In this document: piece after piece, positions 500 to 62,519 of the stretch | Layout: every line of letters starts with the position of its first letter | How positions within the stretch are numbered: position 1 is the first letter of the stretch | IMG/VR virus record: IMGVR_UViG_3300045988_052780 | Length of the DNA: 64,000 nt | DNA from: a virus | Direction: 5' to 3' (one strand) | Notes under the pieces: generated by a model | The model's database searches: none | Told to the model about the DNA's origin: nothing | Seen by the model: the letters and a program-made list of their open reading frames with translations, nothing else | Position numbers and translations under genes: made by a program

Positions 500-1246
500 T
501 TACACCTCACCCTCGGTAGGTGAGTGATTTATTAAGTATTCGTATTTCTTGTTCTCACTACTAACTATCTTGCCATAGATTTCTATTTCGTGTAATAGTC
601 TATTCTTGATAGCCTCTTCTTCCGTGTCATACCATTCGATTAAGGATTCTCCATCCTTCTTTATATAGCATCTCCAGCATTTACCATCTCGTCTATTAGA
701 GTGATAACTAACACCTACTACTTTACCGTAGTGTCTGTTAACTACATTTATTGCTTGAGATACTACTCTAAGATTCTCCATTCTATTGTCTAGTCTAATT
801 CCATTAATATGGTCCACTACAGTCTTAGCATCGTAACCCTCTGTTTCAGTCAGAATCTTATGAATTAGCCGCGTCTTACCATCAGTTTTAGTTACTGCGT
901 AACCTTCACTATTAATATAAATCTTAAACTGTTGTAAGAACTCTTTCTTATCTAAATCGAATATTACTTCACCAGTGATTTCACCATGTACTCCTCTACA
1001 TACACAGACATTATCTCTCCACTCATTAGCATCCTTCTGGGTGAATTGAGATATCTCTCCATGTCTATACATTTGTAAATAGTGCTTTCTACAATAATAC
1101 TGTCCATCTCCCTTAAACTTACTTACTCTACCAGTGCCATTACCGACACTAGCTCCACATATACAGCAAATTCTTTCGTTAGTCTCCATATTTATAAAGT
1201 TGTTACTTGTTTCACTTAATGAGACAAAGATACAACTTATTCCCAA
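500..1246 (-). CDS. HNH homing endonuclease (HNH_3 motif DHINGIRLDNRMENLR plus AP2-like DNA-binding domain) inserted inside nrdD
   Basis: ORF track 248 aa with the DHINGxxxDNRxxNLR HNH motif and a C-terminal AP2-like YHSNRRDGKCWRCYIKKDGE...EEEAIKNR segment. It sits between the two nrdD halves. Confidence 0.8.
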   Translation of the reverse strand: MGISCIFVSLSETSNNFINMETNERICCICGASVGNGTGRVSKFKGDGQYYCRKHYLQMYRHGEISQFTQKDANEWRDNVCVCRGVHGEITGEVIFDLDKKEFLQQFKIYINSEGYAVTKTDGKTRLIHKILTETEGYDAKTVVDHINGIRLDNRMENLRVVSQAINVVNRHYGKVVGVSYHSNRRDGKCWRCYIKKDGESLIEWYDTEEEAIKNRLLHEIEIYGKIVSSENKKYEYLINHSPTEGEV

Positions 1247-1390: not shown

Positions 1391-2518
1391 TCAGGCTGCA
1401 CACTTAACGTTGCTTGCCCCCTGTTGTCCTAATATTAGGAGTTCCAAGTCAATTAATAGAGGTTTTAATTCCCCATCGAAATTCCAAGGGAATGTAAGAA
1501 TACACTTAGTGCGTTCATTATTAAACCAAGTCATAAACTTCTTCTGTAACCAGTTCAAAGAATCCCATATGGGCTTAGTTCCATCTGGGAATACAAACTC
1601 ACCAAATAAACCTTCAAAGTAATTCTTATCAAAATAACTGATATTCCAGAATACTGATTGGAAGTTACGAGCAGCTGCTGGTTGATTGATTGAATATACA
1701 ATCTGTTGGAACTTCTGTTCAATAGTCTTATCAATATTTCTATGTTTATCAACCATCTCTTCTGGACGTTTCCAATAATCATCACCCCATTCTTTACGAG
1801 CGAAGTAATCGAAATACATTAGGAACTCACCAGTAGCTACTGCTCCAGCGAATTGTGAGCTGATAGCAAATACCAGATTAACAAACATACCGCAGAAGGA
1901 GTCCAGATTCTTAGGCTTGGCAGACAAACCTCCAATTGGCTGTAGCCCTTCAAGTAGGAACGGATACATAGTGATAGCCACGCAGTAGGGCATAATTGAT
2001 GTTTCATCATGCTTGTAAAGTTCATGAGATTCCAGTTGTCTAATATACTCCTTAGCTAAATCTTCACCATATAACTGCCTAATTTTATCTGTAAGGATTG
2101 CTCTATTAACTTTAATTACATCACCCTTAAACAACTCTCCATTTAAAGTTACTATATTCTTCTCAGTAACATTGGCATTAGCATCATATTTACTACCTGT
2201 AGCAGCATTAGATGCTTTGGCATAATCTTTAATAAACTGCTTCTTCCCAGCTAATGCTCTGAGTTCAGCTTGTTTATGTCGATACAAAATGAATGCTTTA
2301 GCGACATCATAGTAATCACAAGCCATCAAAGCCTTTTCAATTTGATCTTGAAGCTCTTCTACTGATACTATGTTGTTAATATACAATTCATCTTTAATAT
2401 CATCCAAAATATCGGAATCAATTGGTTCGTTAACAGCATTGAACGCCTTAGTAATAGCCGCGTCAATCTTATTAATATCGAAAGGTTCTACTCTCTTATT
2501 TCTTTTAATTACTAACAT
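1391..2518 (-). CDS. nrdD: anaerobic ribonucleoside-triphosphate reductase NrdD, N-terminal part (ATP-cone plus start of catalytic domain)
   Basis: N-terminal ATP-cone (MLVIKRNKRVEPFDINKIDAAITKAF...) followed by class III RNR-like sequence. The ORF ends 144 nt before the HNH start. Confidence 0.7.
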   Translation of the reverse strand: MLVIKRNKRVEPFDINKIDAAITKAFNAVNEPIDSDILDDIKDELYINNIVSVEELQDQIEKALMACDYYDVAKAFILYRHKQAELRALAGKKQFIKDYAKASNAATGSKYDANANVTEKNIVTLNGELFKGDVIKVNRAILTDKIRQLYGEDLAKEYIRQLESHELYKHDETSIMPYCVAITMYPFLLEGLQPIGGLSAKPKNLDSFCGMFVNLVFAISSQFAGAVATGEFLMYFDYFARKEWGDDYWKRPEEMVDKHRNIDKTIEQKFQQIVYSINQPAAARNFQSVFWNISYFDKNYFEGLFGEFVFPDGTKPIWDSLNWLQKKFMTWFNNERTKCILTFPWNFDGELKPLLIDLELLILGQQGASNVKCAA

Positions 2519-44379: not shown

Positions 44380-45197
44380 TACCCCGACTGCGATTCGAAC
44401 GCAGATATGTGGCTTAGTATAAGAACTAGGAGTCGAACCTAATTCTTATTGTTATTAATTTCATTTTTATGGTAACGGTAATAGGAACGTTCTCCACACT
44501 TGTTCTTAGACTTATAAGTATCAAGCTGTGAATCACAGTTAGGACATATGCATCGTAAATTATCTCTACGATTGTTAGATGCATGTCCGTCTATATGGTC
44601 AATGATAAAGACCAGCTCTTTACCATTCCAGATAGGCTTCATACCACATATAGCACATACTCCACCTTGCTCTTTTAGAATATCTTTCTTGAAGGCCTTA
44701 GGAGAGTAGTTAGCTCTCATTATACTTTCATCACCGTCCAAAAGCTTCTTGTAAGCAAGCATATGAGCATGTTCAAATTGACATTTAGGACCACAGTACT
44801 TGCCATAACTTCCGTTATAACTAATAAGTTCTGCACCACAGTTTAAACAGTATTTGTACTTCCTATTGAATGTTTCTTTAGGATTAATTTTACGTTTAAT
44901 TGGTAACTCTATGCCAAGTCTACGCGCTACATTCTTAATATTAGCACCTGAACAACCATATCTTCTTCCTATTTCCTCATAACTGAGCTTATCTATCAAA
45001 ATTAAATGCTCAAGTTGAGCTTTCTCGTTAATCCATTTACTTGTCATATTCGTCTAAATTAGAAATTCGTACCTCAAAGATACGAATCTTTTACGAATTA
45101 AACAAGTAAATGGATGTTTTGTTGAAATTAATAACAGTGAGTTACGGACTCACCAGCCGTATGAAGGCCACTGTTCTATCCCTTGAACTATCGAGGC
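44380..45197 (-). tRNA. tRNA split in the anticodon loop by a ~746-nt intervening sequence carrying an HNH endonuclease gene. The anticodon is TCT (Arg) or TCA (UGA-reading) depending on the exact junction (exon 1 45162..45197, exon 2 44380..44415).
   Basis: 5' half GCCTCGA TA GTTC AAGGGATA GAAC A GTGGC CTTCA... and 3' half ...AA GCCAC ATAT CTGCG TTCGAAT CGCAG TCGGGGT A. The anticodon stem GTGGC/GCCAC is perfect and the acceptor pairs 7/7 with two G:U. Confidence 0.55.
44439..45047 (-). CDS. HNH homing endonuclease with N-terminal HTH, paralog of 30867..31448, inside a tRNA intervening sequence
   Basis: CAICGM...IDHIDGH...NLRCICPNCD HNH motifs. The N-terminal 60 aa are about 60% identical to the other HNH. 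Confidence 0.8.
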   Translation of the reverse strand: MTSKWINEKAQLEHLILIDKLSYEEIGRRYGCSGANIKNVARRLGIELPIKRKINPKETFNRKYKYCLNCGAELISYNGSYGKYCGPKCQFEHAHMLAYKKLLDGDESIMRANYSPKAFKKDILKEQGGVCAICGMKPIWNGKELVFIIDHIDGHASNNRRDNLRCICPNCDSQLDTYKSKNKCGERSYYRYHKNEINNNKN

Positions 45198-45958: not shown

Positions 45959-46244
45959 TGTCTAATATAGCAACAGCTAGACTATAACCATTATATAATG
46001 TCCCAATAAGACGTTTAAGTTTCTTCTTTATCTTCCTAGGAAGTTTTGGAAGATTAACATTCATAAGCTCTTCAGCTTCTTTATGTCTGGCTCTAACAGC
46101 AAGTTCTAAGTTCTCAGGGACATCTTCGGAATCAAAGAATGCGTTCAATACCGGCTCCTCTGGTAACAATCTTATGACTCTGTAAGCTACTCTTGCTTTC
46201 TTATTGTTACTGAGCTGATCAACGTGTTTAAATTTCAATTTCAT
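45918..46244 (-). CDS. hypothetical protein
   Basis: 108-aa ORF. Confidence 0.35.
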   Translation of the reverse strand: MKLKFKHVDQLSNNKKARVAYRVIRLLPEEPVLNAFFDSEDVPENLELAVRARHKEAEELMNVNLPKLPRKIKKKLKRLIGTLYNGYSLAVAILDNERDTISDEVQQG

Positions 46245-46269
46245 AATCTTTCATTAATAAATTAATAAG

Positions 46270-46359
46270 AGGAAGGACAGGGATTCGAACCCTGGGATCG
46301 CTGTTACACGACCAACAGTTTTCAAGACTGCCGCATTAAGCCAACTCTGCCACCCTTCC
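46270..46359 (-). tRNA. tRNA-Ser(TGA), type II
   Basis: GGAAGGG TG GCAGAGTTGGCTTAATGC, anticodon stem GCAGT/ACTGT with loop CTTGAAA, long variable arm, T-arm CAGGG TTCGAAT CCCTG. Confidence 0.75.
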
Positions 46360-46483
46360 ATTAATAAGAGAGCATCTATCTTTCGATTACATACTCAATG
46401 ACACTCTCCGAATTACTCCGGTCCTCGACAGTAGACCTTTACTGTTTAGCTAAAGCTGTCGACACTTTAGGTTATCAGTTTCG

Positions 46484-46558
46484 CACGCCCTGCACGACTC
46501 GAACATGCAACACACCCAGTTTTGGAGACAGGGGCTCTACCGATTGAGCTAAGGACGC
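46484..46558 (-). tRNA. tRNA-Trp(CCA)
   Basis: Closely parallels E. coli tRNA-Trp: GAGC C CCTGT CTCCAAA ACTGG GTGT..., T-loop TTCGAGT, discriminator G. Confidence 0.75.
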
Positions 46559-46820
46559 ATTTTAGTTACCAATCCTGAATGATTGTAAGGAACATTACTA
46601 TAAAACCCGCTGTACCTACAGCAACTCTGCCATCTTCATTTAGTGGAGAATACACTGCTATTAGAATTAATACAAATCCTAATAATAGTTGTAATATAAA
46701 CTTAACATTTCTCATAATCACGCATCTCCAGAATTAGCAATCCACATGATGTATATGATCATAATCACACCTACGACAAATTCTGTTAACATAATCAAAT
46801 ACGTTTAAAATTAAACATTG

Positions 46821-46892
46821 CGGCGAGTGCAGGATTCGAACCTGCGACCAATTGGTTAACGGCCAACTGCTCTACCACTGAGCTAACTCGCC
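46821..46892 (-). tRNA. tRNA-Asn(GTT) (C at position 33)
   Basis: Perfect acceptor GGCGAGT/ACTCGCC, D-arm GCTC AGTGGTA GAGC, anticodon stem GTTGG/CCAAT with loop CCGTTAA, T-arm GCAGG TTCGAAT CCTGC, discriminator G. Confidence 0.65.
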
Positions 46893-46901
46893 ATTTAAAT
46901 A

Positions 46902-47099
46902 CTAAACACCATCTAGCATTATTAAGAAACCTATAATGGCTATCATAGAACCAATTATGATTGGAACTCCTATAATATCTCCTAAGTTTACTAGTATTGG
47001 CAACAATAGAATCATGCATCCAATTAGAAACATGATAAGTCCTTTAATAAATCTGTGTGTCATAAAATCTATATATTTCCTACTGACAGGCGGCAGCAT
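46902..47099 (-). CDS. small membrane protein
   Basis: 65 aa, very hydrophobic. Confidence 0.35.
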   Translation of the reverse strand: MLPPVSRKYIDFMTHRFIKGLIMFLIGCMILLLPILVNLGDIIGVPIIIGSMIAIIGFLIMLDGV

Positions 47100-47357
47100 G
47101 ATTATCCATGCGGAATTATCATGCCCGTGGGAGTCATTACATAAGTCTTAGAGACTTGAATGAAATACCACTTAACTGCTTTCTTAATTAACTTAAATAG
47201 TTTCATAATAACTCAGTTTTAGTCAGTAAATTAATAATCTAAAGAAACCACTCTATCTTCACAGACCGAGTGGTCGAATACAATTATTTGTACTTCAAGT
47301 TGCTTAATTAAAACATTTCCAGTGACTCCAGAGGGACTTGAACCCTCGACCCACGGA

Positions 47358-47795
47358 TTAACAGAATATTTTAGATATTCTATCTTCAGAGATAACATAA
47401 TCTTTGGTGAAATTTATTCCTTTAACTTGTCCATTCTTGGATGTTTCAGTCCTAAGAGTAATTGTACGTCTATCAACCAACTCAGACATAGGGAATAAAT
47501 AAATTGTATCTAAATCACAACATATAACTACATCCACTTCATCAATGGTGTATTTATGAGTTTCTTTGTTACTCCAGTTATTTGTCACTAAACTAAAACA
47601 AAGAGAGTTATTCTCTGTCTTAGTATCAGTGGTTTTAACTTGACACTTAAAGAATTTGTTGTTGTGGAAGACAACGAAATCAAAAGGGAGATTGTCAGAC
47701 ATAGGTAATAATACATCAATACCATACTTAGCTAACTCTCCGATTGCTACACGCTCTCCCATTTCACCTAATTGTTTGTTATTTCTAACTTCCAT
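47358..47795 (-). CDS. YraN/I-Ssp6803I-like PD-(D/E)XK homing endonuclease
   Basis: GE.GERVAIGELAKYGIDVLLP...DFVVFHNNKFFKCQVKTT matches the UPF0102/I-Ssp6803I core. The start ATG is 1 nt after tRNA-Lys, and the last codons TGT TAA lie inside the CTGTTAA anticodon loop of the split tRNA. Confidence 0.6.
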   Translation of the reverse strand: MEVRNNKQLGEMGERVAIGELAKYGIDVLLPMSDNLPFDFVVFHNNKFFKCQVKTTDTKTENNSLCFSLVTNNWSNKETHKYTIDEVDVVICCDLDTIYLFPMSELVDRRTITLRTETSKNGQVKGINFTKDYVISEDRISKIFC

Positions 47796-47796
47796 G

Positions 47797-47868
47797 TCAC
47801 TCCGCAGGGACTTGAACCCTGTTCTATAGATTAAAAGTCTATAGCATATCCATACATGCTCCGGAGTG
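47797..47868 (-). tRNA. tRNA-Lys(TTT)
   Basis: Fully canonical: CACTCCG GA GCAT GTATGGAT ATGC T ATAGA CTTTTAA TCTAT AGAA CAGGG TTCAAGT CCCTG CGGAGTG A. Confidence 0.85.
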
Positions 47869-48007
47869 AGACATCCGTTAATCCGTTGCTCTAAGCCAGC
47901 TGAGCTATGGAGTCATCCTACAGAAGACAGAATTAAATCACACGAATAAATTGGCGGTTGCCAAGTCATGAAGTGCTGACGTCTTCTTATATTTCACTAA
48001 ATCGAAG

Positions 48008-48081
48008 AGTGGGCGCTCGGATTCGAACCGAGGAATACAGATTTTGCAGACCTGCCTATTAAGCCACTCTAGCACGCCCAC
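48008..48081 (-). tRNA. tRNA-Cys(GCA)
   Basis: Perfect acceptor GTGGGCG/CGCCCAC, anticodon stem CAGGT/ATCTG with loop CTGCAAA, T-arm CTCGG TTCGAAT CCGAG, discriminator U as in bacterial tRNA-Cys. Confidence 0.75.
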
Positions 48082-48179
48082 ATGTCAATGGACTAATGTG
48101 AGGCGAAAGTGAAACGGTTTAATCATTAAGGTTTTAATGATTGGATCTAGTGAAACTAAACAAACATACAAATAAATCG

Positions 48180-49040
48180 TCTGGGTAGTGTGGCTCGAAC
48201 ACACGACATCTAGGTCTAGGAACTAATGCTTTAGAGATTTATCCAATCATTAGAGTTAATAGATTTAATATCTGACGTTTTGGTTGGAAGGTTGTAGCTC
48301 TTACACCACTTTCTAACAGCGTTATCTGAGACTCCAAAGTCCTTTCCAATTTGAGTAAATGGTTTAAATCTAATTAATTCTTTTAGTTGCTCTCTTGTAG
48401 GTCTCTCGACCTTCTGTGCATTCTTAGTAGCACACTCTACACATATACCATTAGCCTTAGAGACTTTGTTAGTGTTACACTGAGAACAGATATAAACTTT
48501 AGGTAAAGGCTCAGATTCCTCTGAACTCCTAACAAAAGAATTAGATACTTTATGTCCTAGCATGTTCTCTAACAGGTAATCCTCTGCTTTGTTATAAGCA
48601 CCACTGTTGTTAGCAGGTGGTTTGAGTCTTAATGTCTTGTCAGTTGAACACTCACTTACTGGAACAAGGTAAACCTTGTTATCGTAACAGGTTGCAAAGT
48701 AATCTATCTGCTCATCATCGTATCTCCTACGAATTGTCTCTTTGGTGTTGGTAGTCTGTGTGACTGTACTAAAATGAAATGCATCTAAATCTCGTACACC
48801 ATTCCTAATAGGATTACTAGACGACTTGCACTGAACTTTAAGGAGTTCATCGCCAGTATCTACTATCATGTCATATCTGGCACAATCACCATAAGGAATT
48901 GAGCAATCAAATCCCATTGACATGAATCCCATAAGGCAGGTTAGTTCTGTAATGTTACCTTTAGATTTTGTATAATCCATATGTTATACTCTAAAGTTTA
49001 GTTCCCAAACCTAGCATTCTACCTACTGAATTATACCCAG
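48180..49040 (-). tRNA. tRNA-Pro(TGG) split at the 3' side of the anticodon loop by a ~790-nt intervening sequence carrying a YraN-like endonuclease gene (exon 1 ~49003..49040, exon 2 48180..48216)
   Basis: 5' half CTGGGTA TA ATTC AGTAGGTA GAAT G CTAGG TTTGGGA and 3' half (GA) CCTAG ATGTC GTGTG TTCGAGC CACAC TACCCAG A. All stems are perfect. The intervening sequence ends with CCTAGA, duplicating the start of exon 2. Confidence 0.6.
48231..48980 (-). CDS. YraN/I-Ssp6803I-like PD-(D/E)XK homing endonuclease with C-terminal zinc-ribbon and HTH DNA-binding extension
   Basis: The N-terminus ITELTCLMGFMSMGFDCSIP...DMIVDTGDELLKVQCKSS is paralogous to 47358..47795. C-terminal CSQCN...CVEC and a DFGVSDNAVRKW HTH. 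Confidence 0.6.
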   Translation of the reverse strand: MDYTKSKGNITELTCLMGFMSMGFDCSIPYGDCARYDMIVDTGDELLKVQCKSSSNPIRNGVRDLDAFHFSTVTQTTNTKETIRRRYDDEQIDYFATCYDNKVYLVPVSECSTDKTLRLKPPANNSGAYNKAEDYLLENMLGHKVSNSFVRSSEESEPLPKVYICSQCNTNKVSKANGICVECATKNAQKVERPTREQLKELIRFKPFTQIGKDFGVSDNAVRKWCKSYNLPTKTSDIKSINSNDWINL

Positions 49041-49110
49041 AGTGCGGAAGTCTAAATATGCTTGACATGGGTTATGCTGTAAGACTTCCTATCAATTCGA
49101 AATCAAGACG

Positions 49111-49184
49111 TGGGCAAGATAGGACTTGAACCTATGACCCCTACCTTATCAGAGTAGTGCTCTAACCAACTGAGCTACTTGCCC
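49111..49184 (-). tRNA. tRNA-Ile(GAT)
   Basis: GGGCAAG TA GCTC AGTTGGTTA GAGC A CTACT CTGATAA GGTAG, T-arm ATAGG TTCAAGT CCTAT. Confidence 0.85.
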
Positions 49185-49272
49185 ATCCACAGAAGACGCT
49201 ACCAATACTAATCATGTAAGAGGCGTGTGCTGTACGTCTTCTTAAATAAAATAATCATTTATGGATTATATG

Positions 49273-49289
49273 GTTGCGGAGATGGGAGT
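49273..49289. repeat. 17-bp direct repeat ttgcggagatgggagtt. It duplicates the 3' end of tRNA-Met (50000..50016) and flanks the GIY-YIG gene on its far side.
   Basis: 16/17 identity with 50000..50016. It is followed by the hairpin GATGGGA(N14)TCCCATC. Confidence 0.7.
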
Positions 49290-49936
49290 TATTGTGCATA
49301 TTCCCATCTATATCCGTATGCTGTCTTAGTCTTGTGCTTAGCTGCATTAGAGATATGGCTTCTAACACCTCCGTTATATGTCTTAGCATAACCGTTATCA
49401 ACACACCAATGTGCTGCATCAGCTACGCTATCAAACACTTGCACAAGCATATCTTCGTTGTACTGTTCTATCTTTACTGGAGGTTTACAGGAGCCACAAC
49501 GTGACTTGCTATTATTGTGAGACCTCTTAATGTCCTTCACTACTTTAGACACTGTGTCTGGATGACATCCTACTATTTTAGCAGTATCTTTCATCGAATG
49601 TCCAGCAGCGTAAAGCTCACGAATTTCATCATAGTTCCAAATAATAGAACCATCTCCACCGGTAGTGGCATTATAACCATTACCATAGGTTTTAAATTCA
49701 TTTATCCAGTAAGTTTCTCTTCCGCTAGATTCCTTTGACGAGCACTCTTCTAGCATTTCTATGCTAAATGAATCAATTCCATATTTATTCATGGCTCTAT
49801 ACAAAGGTCTATCTTTGCATCTCTCCTTCTTATAATCTCTACAGTGTTCTTTCCATCTCTTACTAACGGACGAAGTAGTTTTACCTATATACTTCTTTCC
49901 ATTTACATGGTTAGTTATGCAGTAAATATAAGACAT
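49289..49936 (-). CDS. GIY-YIG homing endonuclease (I-TevI/Seg-like) with C-terminal DNA-binding region
   Basis: N-terminal YIYCITNHVNGKKYIGKT...RWKEH is the GIY-YIG signature. The C-terminal half has NUMOD/HTH-like segments. Confidence 0.8.
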   Translation of the reverse strand: MSYIYCITNHVNGKKYIGKTTSSVSKRWKEHCRDYKKERCKDRPLYRAMNKYGIDSFSIEMLEECSSKESSGRETYWINEFKTYGNGYNATTGGDGSIIWNYDEIRELYAAGHSMKDTAKIVGCHPDTVSKVVKDIKRSHNNSKSRCGSCKPPVKIEQYNEDMLVQVFDSVADAAHWCVDNGYAKTYNGGVRSHISNAAKHKTKTAYGYRWEYAQ

Positions 49937-50078: not shown

Positions 50079-50081
50079 AAG

Positions 50082-50153
50082 TGCTCCATACAGGATTCAA
50101 ACCTGTGACACGTAGGTTTAGGGTCTACTGTTCTATCGCTGAACTAATGGAGC
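50082..50153 (-). tRNA. tRNA with CUA anticodon (candidate amber-suppressor / TAG-decoding tRNA); loop is atypical (C33)
   Basis: Perfect acceptor GCTCCAT/ATGGAGC, D-arm GTTC AGCGATA GAAC, anticodon stem GTAG(A)/(C)CTAC with loop CCCTAAA, T-arm ACAGG TTTGAAT CCTGT. Confidence 0.5.
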
Positions 50154-51711: not shown

Positions 51712-51799
51712 AGTTTACTTCTACTATTCTCACGAACCATAGAAGGGTTTGCTGAGCGAATGCTCAACAGATGTTGTATTTAATTATCGCAGTGTGGGG

Positions 51800-51883
51800 T
51801 GGGCCCGGGAGGACTCGAACCTCCAGTCCAATTAAGGAGTAGATTTACAGTCTACGCGGCTACCAATTACCGGTTACGTGCCC
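51800..51883 (-). tRNA. tRNA-Tyr(GTA), type II
   Basis: Anticodon arm GTAGA CTGTAAA TCTAC, long variable arm, T-arm GGAGG TTCGAGT CCTCC. The acceptor has one A:G mismatch. Confidence 0.65.
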
Positions 51884-52130
51884 AAATCACACAATCCATA
51901 TTAACTGATGAATTGTGAGTGCAAAGATAAGTAATCCTTCTCACATATAAAAGTTAATATGTATTAAATACAACATGGGGAAATTTAATTGGATATAGAC
52001 TTACTATCTTCACAGACTGTAAGCCTTTATGACCATTTCCAATAGTTGCTGTTTTAAGTAGTAATGGCAATGACACAGATGCAACTATCGGAAATTCTTT
52101 ATGAGTAATTTAAAACTACAGTAATAATAG

Positions 52131-52200
52131 TCAGCTAGGTGGGATTCGAACCCACACCACTTACATAATTTGTAAGTCTTCTAACTTAAATTACTAGCCT
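52131..52200 (-). ncRNA. tRNA-like element (canonical T-arm GTGGG TTCGAAT CCCAC plus 6-bp acceptor) with a non-cloverleaf body; candidate Y-RNA-like tRNA mimic or degenerate tRNA
   Basis: Minus strand is AGGCTAG TAATTTAAGTTAGAAGACTTACAAATTATGTAAGTGGTGT GGG-TTCGAAT-CCCAC CTAGCTG A. The body forms a 7-bp hairpin ACTTACA/TGTAAGT with a 5-nt loop instead of D and anticodon arms. It lies about 105 nt downstream of the vWA/Ro-like gene on the same strand. Confidence 0.4.
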
Positions 52201-54027: not shown

Positions 54028-54388
54028 CTTGTAAAATTAAATTGGCAGGTTAATCTGAGAGTTCTTTATTCTAATTGATAAAATGGGACACATAGACATC
54101 GAGCCAGCTTAATACAACTCGCTACTTACACACTACATGCCCCATATCAAATGAGGAAAGAGGTTCACTTGATGACCTATCTACGTGCTGATTATAACGT
54201 AGACCGTGCAGATTCTCTCTTACACAATACTATGATGGACTCAAACCATCTCCACCCCTAGGTGAACTTTCCGTTATTCGAATAGTACAGGTTTCAACTC
54301 TTTATAACGCCTTTAAGTCAAAGTATACTCCGGAATATACTCTTAGTTCATCAGACCAAGTTTGCGCTTAGAATTATCTAAGATTAAG

Positions 54389-62439: not shown

Positions 62440-62519
62440 TTATTAATCAGACTCCTGCATATAGCAGAAGTTTCGTCCAGTCTCATCAGTGATTATTTTA
62501 TAGACTCCTGGTTGTCTTA

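Follow-up and report, generated by a model that had tools for sequence, protein, structure and literature searches.

A split tRNA gene enclosing a second tRNA gene and an endonuclease gene

The virus record IMGVR_UViG_3300045988_052780 of IMG/VR was analysed as a stretch of 64,000 nucleotides (nt), here called the window, which contains a phage transfer RNA (tRNA) array with 23 tRNAs called by ARAGORN. On the minus strand of this array, a tRNA gene is split into two halves that enclose a complete tRNA-Lys(UUU) gene and a gene for a homing endonuclease of 145 amino acids (aa). The 5′ remnant (33 nt, GACTCCATAGCTCAGCTGGCTTAGAGCAACGGA, 47882..47914) spans the acceptor stem to the 5′ strand of the anticodon stem (tRNA nt 1-31). 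It is followed by a 13-nt left junction (TTAACGGATGTCT, 47869..47881) and then by the enclosed tRNA-Lys(UUU), termed the cargo or A-prime tRNA (47797..47868), an ARAGORN call that reaches 50.5 bits with the tRNA model of Rfam. The cargo is predicted to fold as a complete cloverleaf over 47868..47797, with the anticodon stem ATAGA/TCTAT and a C1-G72 pair. A single nucleotide (C) separates it from the open reading frame (ORF) of the PD-(D/E)XK endonuclease, which starts at 47795 (47358..47795), and a GGAG in the 3′ acceptor strand of the cargo lies 4 nt upstream of the endonuclease AUG. The 42-nt 3′ remnant (CTGTTAATCCGTGGGTCGAGGGTTCAAGTCCCTCTGGAGTCA, 47323..47364) overlaps the last codons of the ORF, its first 3 nt (CTG) being part of the insert and of the ORF end. 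As an earlier note on this DNA had pointed out, the last codon and stop, TGT-TAA, fall within the loop CTGTTAA, the old anticodon loop of the split tRNA. The 517 nt between the halves are made up of 72 nt of tRNA-Lys, 431 nt of ORF and 14 others.

Joining the halves in silico (33 + 42 nt; 47914..47882 and 47364..47323) yields a 75-nt perfect cloverleaf with the junction ACGGA-CUGUUAAUCCGU, for which ARAGORN returns tRNA-Asn(GTT). This cloverleaf had been recognized in the earlier note, together with the complete internal tRNA-Lys(TTT), the resemblance between the 3′ ends of the cargo and of the 3′ half (20/23 identical in the present comparison), and a separate intact tRNA-Asn(GTT) at 46892..46821 (73.7 bits, Rfam tRNA model); each of these was reproduced here. 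Run in intron mode on the region, ARAGORN found the internal tRNA-Lys only. In the common form, the first nucleotides of the insert are predicted to pair with loop and stem nucleotides of the 3′ half, which lengthens the anticodon helix to 13 base pairs (bp) without bulges. Scans for promoters and terminators gave results no better than those for shuffled sequence.

Assignment of the ORF to the I-Ssp6803I family, also proposed earlier, is confirmed by its match to PF11645 (PDDEXK_5; E = 3.2e-24; 86 bits, the cut-off being 26.1; positions 2-135 of the 138-position profile) and by its alignment with PDB 2OST_A (E = 3.4e-4 over residues 6-120). In the latter, PFDFVV stands opposite SYDLVF and CQVKTT opposite VQVKSS, so that the D ... 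QVK signature, which we take to hold the catalytic residues of the I-Ssp6803I family, is kept. The 2OST entry is the structure listed for the ssp6803i family, PF11645 (PMC3424549). The metagenome collection lists an identical endonuclease protein in 82 blocks, for the most part from human-gut contigs of ~60-186 kilobases (kb). A further 94 homologues range from 45 to 99% identity, 93 of them matching PF11645, and most are near full length (~116-158 aa) down to 45% identity.

Searches of IMG/VR with the endonuclease protein returned only relatives of 24-26% identity, which have no tRNAs nearby, and an exact search of IMG/VR for the 5′ half gave no match. A megablast search of 50,697 phage records with the region produced one 61-nt tRNA match only, and tblastn with the neighbouring 670-aa protein reached at most 47% identity (Klebsiella myoviruses). 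No annotated phage is thus a close relative. The same locus was found on contigs of ~176-186 kb (most) and of ~360-390 kb (L014, 362,505 bp; L015, 381,860 bp).

Insert-free relatives carry tRNA-Lys at the split site

Related loci (numbered with the prefix L) were compared with the window; the close relatives come from human-gut metagenomes, and 14 insert-bearing copies were examined (13 loci and the window). Directly downstream of the split tRNA lies a gene for a 34-aa protein (47206..47102), which occurs in 3823 blocks of the collection, ~45x the 82 blocks of the endonuclease. None of the ten loci fetched by means of this gene has the endonuclease; at precisely the position of the split tRNA, each has an intact tRNA-Lys(TTT). 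The insert is polymorphic for presence and absence at a single exact position, where close relatives have an uninterrupted, empty allele.

Two alleles of the intact gene were found. Allele B, intact in five loci (L017, L027, L029, L032, and L033) and scoring 67.2 bits with the Rfam tRNA model, reads GACTCCATAGCTCAGCTGGCTTAGAGCAACGGA-CCTTTAA-TCCGTGGGTCGAGGGTTCAAGTCCCTCTGGAGTCA; it is identical to the window halves over 33/33 nt of the 5′ remnant and 39/39 nt of the 3′ remnant (47361..47323). Allele A equals the cargo tRNA-Lys except at pair 1-72, which is G-C in allele A and C-G in the cargo, both sides being changed. In a sample taken with a 22-mer from the upstream flank, the ratio of A to B to split copies was 5:4:2. 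All 14 split copies have allele-B halves. The loop of allele B, CCUUUAA, has C33 (L017 3810..3884; window halves) in place of the near-universal U33.

Since the intact allele B at the exact site is identical to both halves, the halves are those of a tRNA-Lys(UUU) gene, allele B, and with identity at 33/33 and 39/39 positions to an intact tRNA at the same site in related contigs they are no chance match. The insert replaced the CCT of the allele B loop, and the stop codon TAA of the ORF reuses the TTAA of the old loop. The joined halves (CTGTTAA) differ from the empty allele (CCTTTAA) at 2/7 loop positions, with a changed anticodon; the apparent GTT anticodon is an accident of the last endonuclease codon TGT and the stop TAA. 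An origin from tRNA-Asn, as the earlier note had it, is rejected: the tRNA-Lys(UUU) of insert-free relatives shares the 33 + 39 nt and has CCTTTAA as its loop, and the real tRNA-Asn of the window (46892..46821) is unrelated to the halves. The uninterrupted allele that the note had suggested seeking in relatives does exist at the exact site, but as tRNA-Lys and not tRNA-Asn.

Conservation of the cassette and variation at its left junction

A 512-nt segment of the cassette is identical in 12/12 full-length copies, including that of L031, which was chosen otherwise than by protein identity, and the identical cassette occurs on at least three downstream flank haplotypes. Variation is found at the left junction. 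The window has an imperfect 8-nt tandem repeat here (AACGGATT/AACGGATG, of AACGGAT(T/G) type; 47872..47887, minus strand), the second copy of which lies in the 13-nt junction. This repeat is present in 11/14 copies, and the remaining three (L004, L010, and L026) lack 8 nt (AACGGATT) and read ACGGA-TGTCT. The 13-bp extended helix is lost in these shorter variants, which have the 5-bp stem only.

The 5′ junction stem and TTAA are common to the window lineage and the distant L035 cassette, which also has the TCTC leader ahead of cargo C1; the TTAA at the left junction may be ancestral. TTAA had been noted earlier at both junctions, which is correct for the window; its 5′ occurrence is polymorphic, 3/14 copies being without the 8 nt. 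An explanation of TTAA as a target-site duplication was rejected, as a duplication would have kept the CCT that is missing from the left copy, and the 8-nt-shorter variants have no such copy.

Endonuclease and tRNA modules in related phages

More distant relatives of the endonuclease have a whole tRNA-Lys directly upstream (in L079, a 3′ remnant), and a second tRNA-Lys is variably kept as both halves, as one half, or as a whole copy. In L034 (85% identity), a whole tRNA-Lys lies flush with the normal upstream flank and is followed by C-ATG and an endonuclease ending in TGT-TAA, after which comes only the 3′ half of another tRNA-Lys allele; there is no 5′ half. L035-37 (70%) have the 5′ half only, then a spacer, a whole tRNA-Lys with C1-G72, and the endonuclease. 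Two intact tandem tRNA-Lys genes precede the endonuclease in L038/L040 (65%) and one intact tRNA-Lys does so in L077 (54%), and in L079 (59%) the endonuclease lies downstream of a tRNA-Lys 3′ remnant.

Comparable modules are found at other tRNAs. L015 (4848..5420) has a 5′ remnant of tRNA-Ser(UGA), a 130-aa PF11645 gene, 1 nt, a complete variant tRNA-Ser(UGA), and a 3′ remnant; 10 nt of the target tRNA-Ser(UGA) are deleted, so the halves cannot rejoin. A variant tRNA-Asn, 2 nt, and a PF11645 gene take the place of the standard tRNA-Asn in L013 (4300..4815), and a PF11645 gene, 3 nt, and a variant tRNA-Tyr take that of the standard tRNA-Tyr in L006 (7050..7555). As shown by these modules at Ser, Asn, and Tyr tRNAs, the combination of an endonuclease with a spare tRNA is a recurrent design in this phage group. 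L007 (16900..17400) has a tRNA-Ser(GCU) split at 35/36 without a spare copy, and its insert ends in a T-arm-like hairpin.

A proposed homing cassette with a replacement tRNA

We propose, with a probability of about 0.8, that the structure is a tRNA-Lys(UUU) gene, allele B, cut in its anticodon loop by a 517-nt intron-less homing cassette that brings a replacement tRNA-Lys. Of the alternatives listed in the earlier note, a nested mobile cassette with insertional inactivation is the one backed by the evidence. The endonuclease is of the free-standing type: it lies outside any intron or intein, in a tRNA cluster, and is absent from related phages. I-Ssp6803I targets the DNA of a tRNA anticodon stem-loop. 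During co-infection with a relative carrying allele B, the endonuclease of the window would likewise cut the DNA of the allele B anticodon stem-loop, and recombinational repair from the cassette-bearing genome would copy the cassette into the break. Insertion would destroy the recognition site and protect the carrier genome. The cargo tRNA-Lys is presumably uncut, its anticodon stem being ATAGA/TCTAT vs. ACGGA/TCCGT in allele B and its D arm also differing, and it would take over the tRNA-Lys function lost by insertion. No self-splicing intron would be needed, because the cargo tRNA would replace the lost function. The cargo would probably be freed from a polycistronic transcript of the tRNA array by normal tRNA end-processing, and the endonuclease would be translated from unprocessed or leaderless RNA, with the GGAG before its AUG. 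The allele-B halves would be leftover flanks that are not rejoined.

The commonest allele, A, may itself be a product of cassette loss, to judge by its sequence. A split locus recombining at its ACTCC repeats (5′ side) and at its GTTCAAGTCCCT..GGAGT repeats (3′ side) would be reduced to precisely G1, the A-prime body, and C72. Such loss would leave a presumably resistant empty site, matching the invasion-loss cycle of homing genes.

Several points weigh against the homing of a spare-tRNA cassette. The left junction is not that of a clean insertion, since the CCT of the loop is missing and TTAA or the 8-nt repeat is present, and the founding event of the cassette insertion is not simple. Recent common descent, and not repeated homing, could account for part of the identity of the cassette between samples. 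The window lineage still has two perfect halves, the only substitutions being two in L003/L012, both in loops; loop-only substitutions are also expected under selection for tRNA structure, and two changes are too few for a test. Cleavage of allele B, and sparing of A and A-prime, are predicted from the insertion site and the family of the enzyme.

These points bear on a further explanation, quite unlikely in our view, in which the locus is a fossil of a single old insertion, with an immobile or domesticated endonuclease spread by descent and ordinary recombination in a mosaic population. One recent origin would fit the identity of the cassette in all full-length copies, the flanks are generally mosaic in the population, and endonuclease activity is deduced from sequence. 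However, an intact, identical ORF is found in 82 collection blocks, and its homologues stay near full length to 45% identity, which indicates purifying selection on the protein. The cassette also sits on several flank haplotypes, and members of this endonuclease clade occur beside tRNA-Lys in several phage lineages with differing remnants, which indicates repeated events.

The perfect halves of the window lineage would also be expected if the remnants, especially the 3′ half with its T arm and acceptor strand, had been co-opted as an end cap for processing or stability of the endonuclease mRNA and were maintained, not as inert relics, by selection acting on the selfish element, a suggestion that is compatible with a homing cassette but that we consider very unlikely. 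A 3′ half directly follows TGT-TAA in L034 and L079 too, with a different sequence and a similar layout. By contrast, no 3′ half follows the endonuclease in L035-37, L038, and L077, and L034 lacks a 5′ half.

It is highly improbable that the 517-nt insert is a true tRNA intron, spliced by a ribozyme or another enzymatic pathway into a GUU tRNA, a tRNA-Lys, and an endonuclease mRNA: despite the perfect cloverleaf of the joined halves, the 13-bp anticodon helix of the common form, the confinement of both substitutions to loops, and a neighbouring split tRNA-Pro gene (described below) showing that conserved precursor structure is possible in this system, the uninterrupted allele is a tRNA-Lys with a CCUUUAA loop, the extended helix is gone in the 8-nt-shorter variant, one half is lost in relatives, and the tRNA-Lys of the cassette would be superfluous if the host tRNA were restored. 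The intron reading of the earlier note is accordingly not upheld. Group I and other intron models gave no match at E <= 10 in 46000..49500, which covers this insert and that of tRNA-Pro (Rfam). Neither insert has an intron or ribozyme at the gathering threshold, and no intron match was found across the whole window. A group I intron is rejected on three counts: there is no ribozyme core, the non-coding room is too small (14 nt neither tRNA nor ORF vs. ~200 nt for a group I core), and removal of the insert fails to restore the empty allele. A bulge-helix-bulge intron (two 3-nt bulges and a 4-bp helix) is likewise rejected, as the predicted 13-bp helix is continuous and free of bulges. As for an RNA-repair route, no RNA ligase, RtcB, or polynucleotide-kinase domain was detected by Pfam in the 29 window ORFs scanned.

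The spare-tRNA cassette is probably a new trick of a selfish gene and not a new kind of tRNA intron; our literature searches found no description of this strategy. Homing endonucleases usually spare their hosts by means of a self-splicing intron or intein, or through an intergenic site. The cassette would represent a third solution, in which the target tRNA is broken and a predicted functional, divergent copy of the same tRNA is carried along. Such a cassette offers an explanation for enigmatic tRNA-inside-tRNA arrangements in gut megaphages. It would also explain why phage arrays hold sharply different isoacceptor alleles, namely a target, an invaded form, and a divergent, never-invaded form. 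For annotation, remnants of this kind are a pitfall, as they can mimic a split tRNA of the wrong identity.

Relation to described elements

One close parallel is I-Ssp6803I of the cyanobacterial tRNA-fMet group I intron, which belongs to the same family and whose gene also lies inside a tRNA anticodon loop. Its intron takes up 655 nt for a 150-aa ORF (PMC1995217), and PF11645 endonucleases have been reported in tRNA-fMet introns at position 33/34 (PMC13011429). There, the self-splicing intron restores the tRNA in RNA, whereas the insert of the window has no ribozyme and contains a second tRNA gene.

T4 SegB, a free-standing GIY-YIG homing endonuclease in a tRNA cluster, spreads itself together with neighbouring tRNA genes (PMC2330249). 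Like the endonuclease of the window, it is an intron-less enzyme in a phage tRNA array, and it recognizes tRNA-gene sequence. It differs in enzyme family, in recognizing a T-stem-loop motif, and in being intergenic, and no spare of the same isoacceptor has been described for it.

The earlier note knew of no described tRNA intron that contains another tRNA gene, but there is a precedent in Lak megaphages, the nearest observation in print, where the predicted intron of a tRNA-Thr(TGT) may encode a tRNA and was called enigmatic (PMC6784885). In both cases a gut-phage tRNA is interrupted by a tRNA-like insert that is identical in different cohorts, and the gene occurs both with the insert and without it. 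For the Lak insert, no endonuclease gene was reported and no mechanism was proposed.

Integrative elements in tRNA genes bring a copy of the tRNA segment that they displace. In these elements, as in the proposed cassette, a mobile element compensates for damage to a tRNA with tRNA sequence. However, they use an integrase, duplicate only the 3′ part, and restore the same gene, whereas the cassette would combine a nuclease with a whole divergent gene and leave the target broken.

A split tRNA-Pro gene next to the cassette

A tRNA-Pro(UGG) gene 300 nt from the Lys cassette is split between nt 38 and 39 (48180..49040, minus strand). Its 5′ part (49040..49003) is followed by a gene for a 249-aa PF11645 endonuclease (48980..48231) and by the 3′ part (48214..48180); the rejoined junction would read GGUUUGGGA-CCUAGAUG. 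No second tRNA-Pro was found in the window. The untranslated ends of the insert (22 + 16 nt) form a helix together, in which the whole anticodon loop also takes part by pairing with the 3′ end of the insert. In the computed fold, a mini-precursor has the cloverleaf with its anticodon arm extended by 12 bp, an A/CA internal loop, and 8 bp (-49.9 kcal/mol, z = -7.6).

The same layout is present in eight further loci (L041, L045, L059, L061, L062, L064, L065, and L066), whose endonucleases are 46-76% identical and whose tRNA-Pro sequences differ strongly. When cut at the equivalent relative positions, 9/9 loci gave a tRNA-Pro(TGG) in ARAGORN. In the alignment of the nine sequences, 97.2% of cells are paired, and both sides have changed in 15/24 pairs. 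The covariation score is 0.664 vs. 0.207 in shuffles (0/500 reach the observed value) and <=0.11 for slid partners. Nucleotide 37 of the tRNA covaries with insert position -6 (G-C, A-U, and U-A). At loop positions 33-35 the wobble (G-U) pairs vary scarcely or not at all, a pattern that favours an RNA helix over a DNA palindrome.

In the population to which the window belongs, 12 loci have an intact tRNA-Pro allele 1 and five an invaded one; allele 2, which is very different, occurs intact in 13 loci and in no invaded copy. Two sharply different alleles, distinct in D arm, anticodon stem, and T arm, coexist at both the Lys and the Pro site, and in each pair a single allele is host to the endonuclease. 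Such allele pairs may be a sign of escape, either from endonucleases or from anticodon nucleases of the host.

No ribozyme and no bulge-helix-bulge motif were found in the Pro insert, and no RNA ligase among the 29 window ORFs scanned. Archaeal bulge-helix-bulge introns can carry homing-endonuclease ORFs. They resemble mainly the tRNA-Pro element, as an endonuclease ORF in a ribozyme-less insert of an RNA gene; they differ in that the motif is absent from the predicted Lys and Pro precursors and that the window relatives come from human-gut metagenomes. We know of no splicing endonuclease in bacteria. The extended anticodon helix is also absent from the tRNA-Ser(GCU) insert of L007, so the Pro architecture is not general to inserts without a spare tRNA.

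The two elements of the window contrast in the fate of their targets. Where a spare tRNA is carried (Lys and Ser-UGA), the target halves decay, whereas without one (Pro) the halves and the precursor helix are conserved. The Pro insert may be removed from RNA by a protein-dependent route, e.g. an endonuclease and an RNA ligase; alternatively, the tRNA-Pro body may serve as a scaffold for folding or stability of the endonuclease mRNA. We offer as a tentative, on balance unlikely, generalization that there are two routes of colonization, one with a spare tRNA (Lys) and one with a ribozyme-less, helix-closed insert (Pro), the latter a new class of phage or bacterial tRNA intron removed by protein enzymes. 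If so, the Lys cassette would be a sister solution to the same problem. The Pro element is more interesting than the Lys cassette flagged in the earlier note, and the contrast between them points to a possible novel RNA-processing route in phages of gut bacteria.

Other features of the window

Upstream of the Lys cassette lies a tRNA-Cys (48081..48008, minus strand), separated by 93 nt from the 5′ half of the split tRNA. Endonuclease genes crowd the array: two PF11645 genes and one GIY-YIG gene lie within 3 kb, and HNH genes are found elsewhere in the window. The GIY-YIG gene, which also encodes a helix-turn-helix (49289..49936, minus strand), is situated between tRNA(CTA) and tRNA-Ile; some relatives have it and others do not. 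Two HNH_3 genes are at 500..1246 and 44439..45047, both on the minus strand.

The tRNA with anticodon CTA (50081..50153, minus strand) is of the amber-suppressor type and is labelled "Pyl" by ARAGORN. In-frame TAG codons occur in the tRNA-Pro-associated endonuclease ORFs of distant phages (L060, L063, and L067). Together, the CTA-anticodon tRNA and the in-frame TAG codons suggest stop-codon recoding in parts of the phage group. The two tRNA predictors differ at two further places: a tRNA at 52131..52200 (minus strand; 40.6 bits) is found by Rfam and missing from the ARAGORN list, and a tRNA-Tyr at 51797..51884 (minus strand) is called by ARAGORN and missing from the Rfam gathering list.

A 375-aa ORF (1391..2518, minus strand) matches an ATP-cone and the first ~165/562 positions of the NrdD profile, and an HNH gene adjoins it. 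The nrdD gene appears to be fragmented; fragmented nrdD genes have been reported in jumbo gut ("Jug") phages. Two RNA elements score above their Rfam gathering scores, both on the minus strand: a RAGATH-34 RNA at 54284..54381 (86.9 bits) and a RAGATH-1 hammerhead ribozyme at 62445..62518 (82.6 bits).

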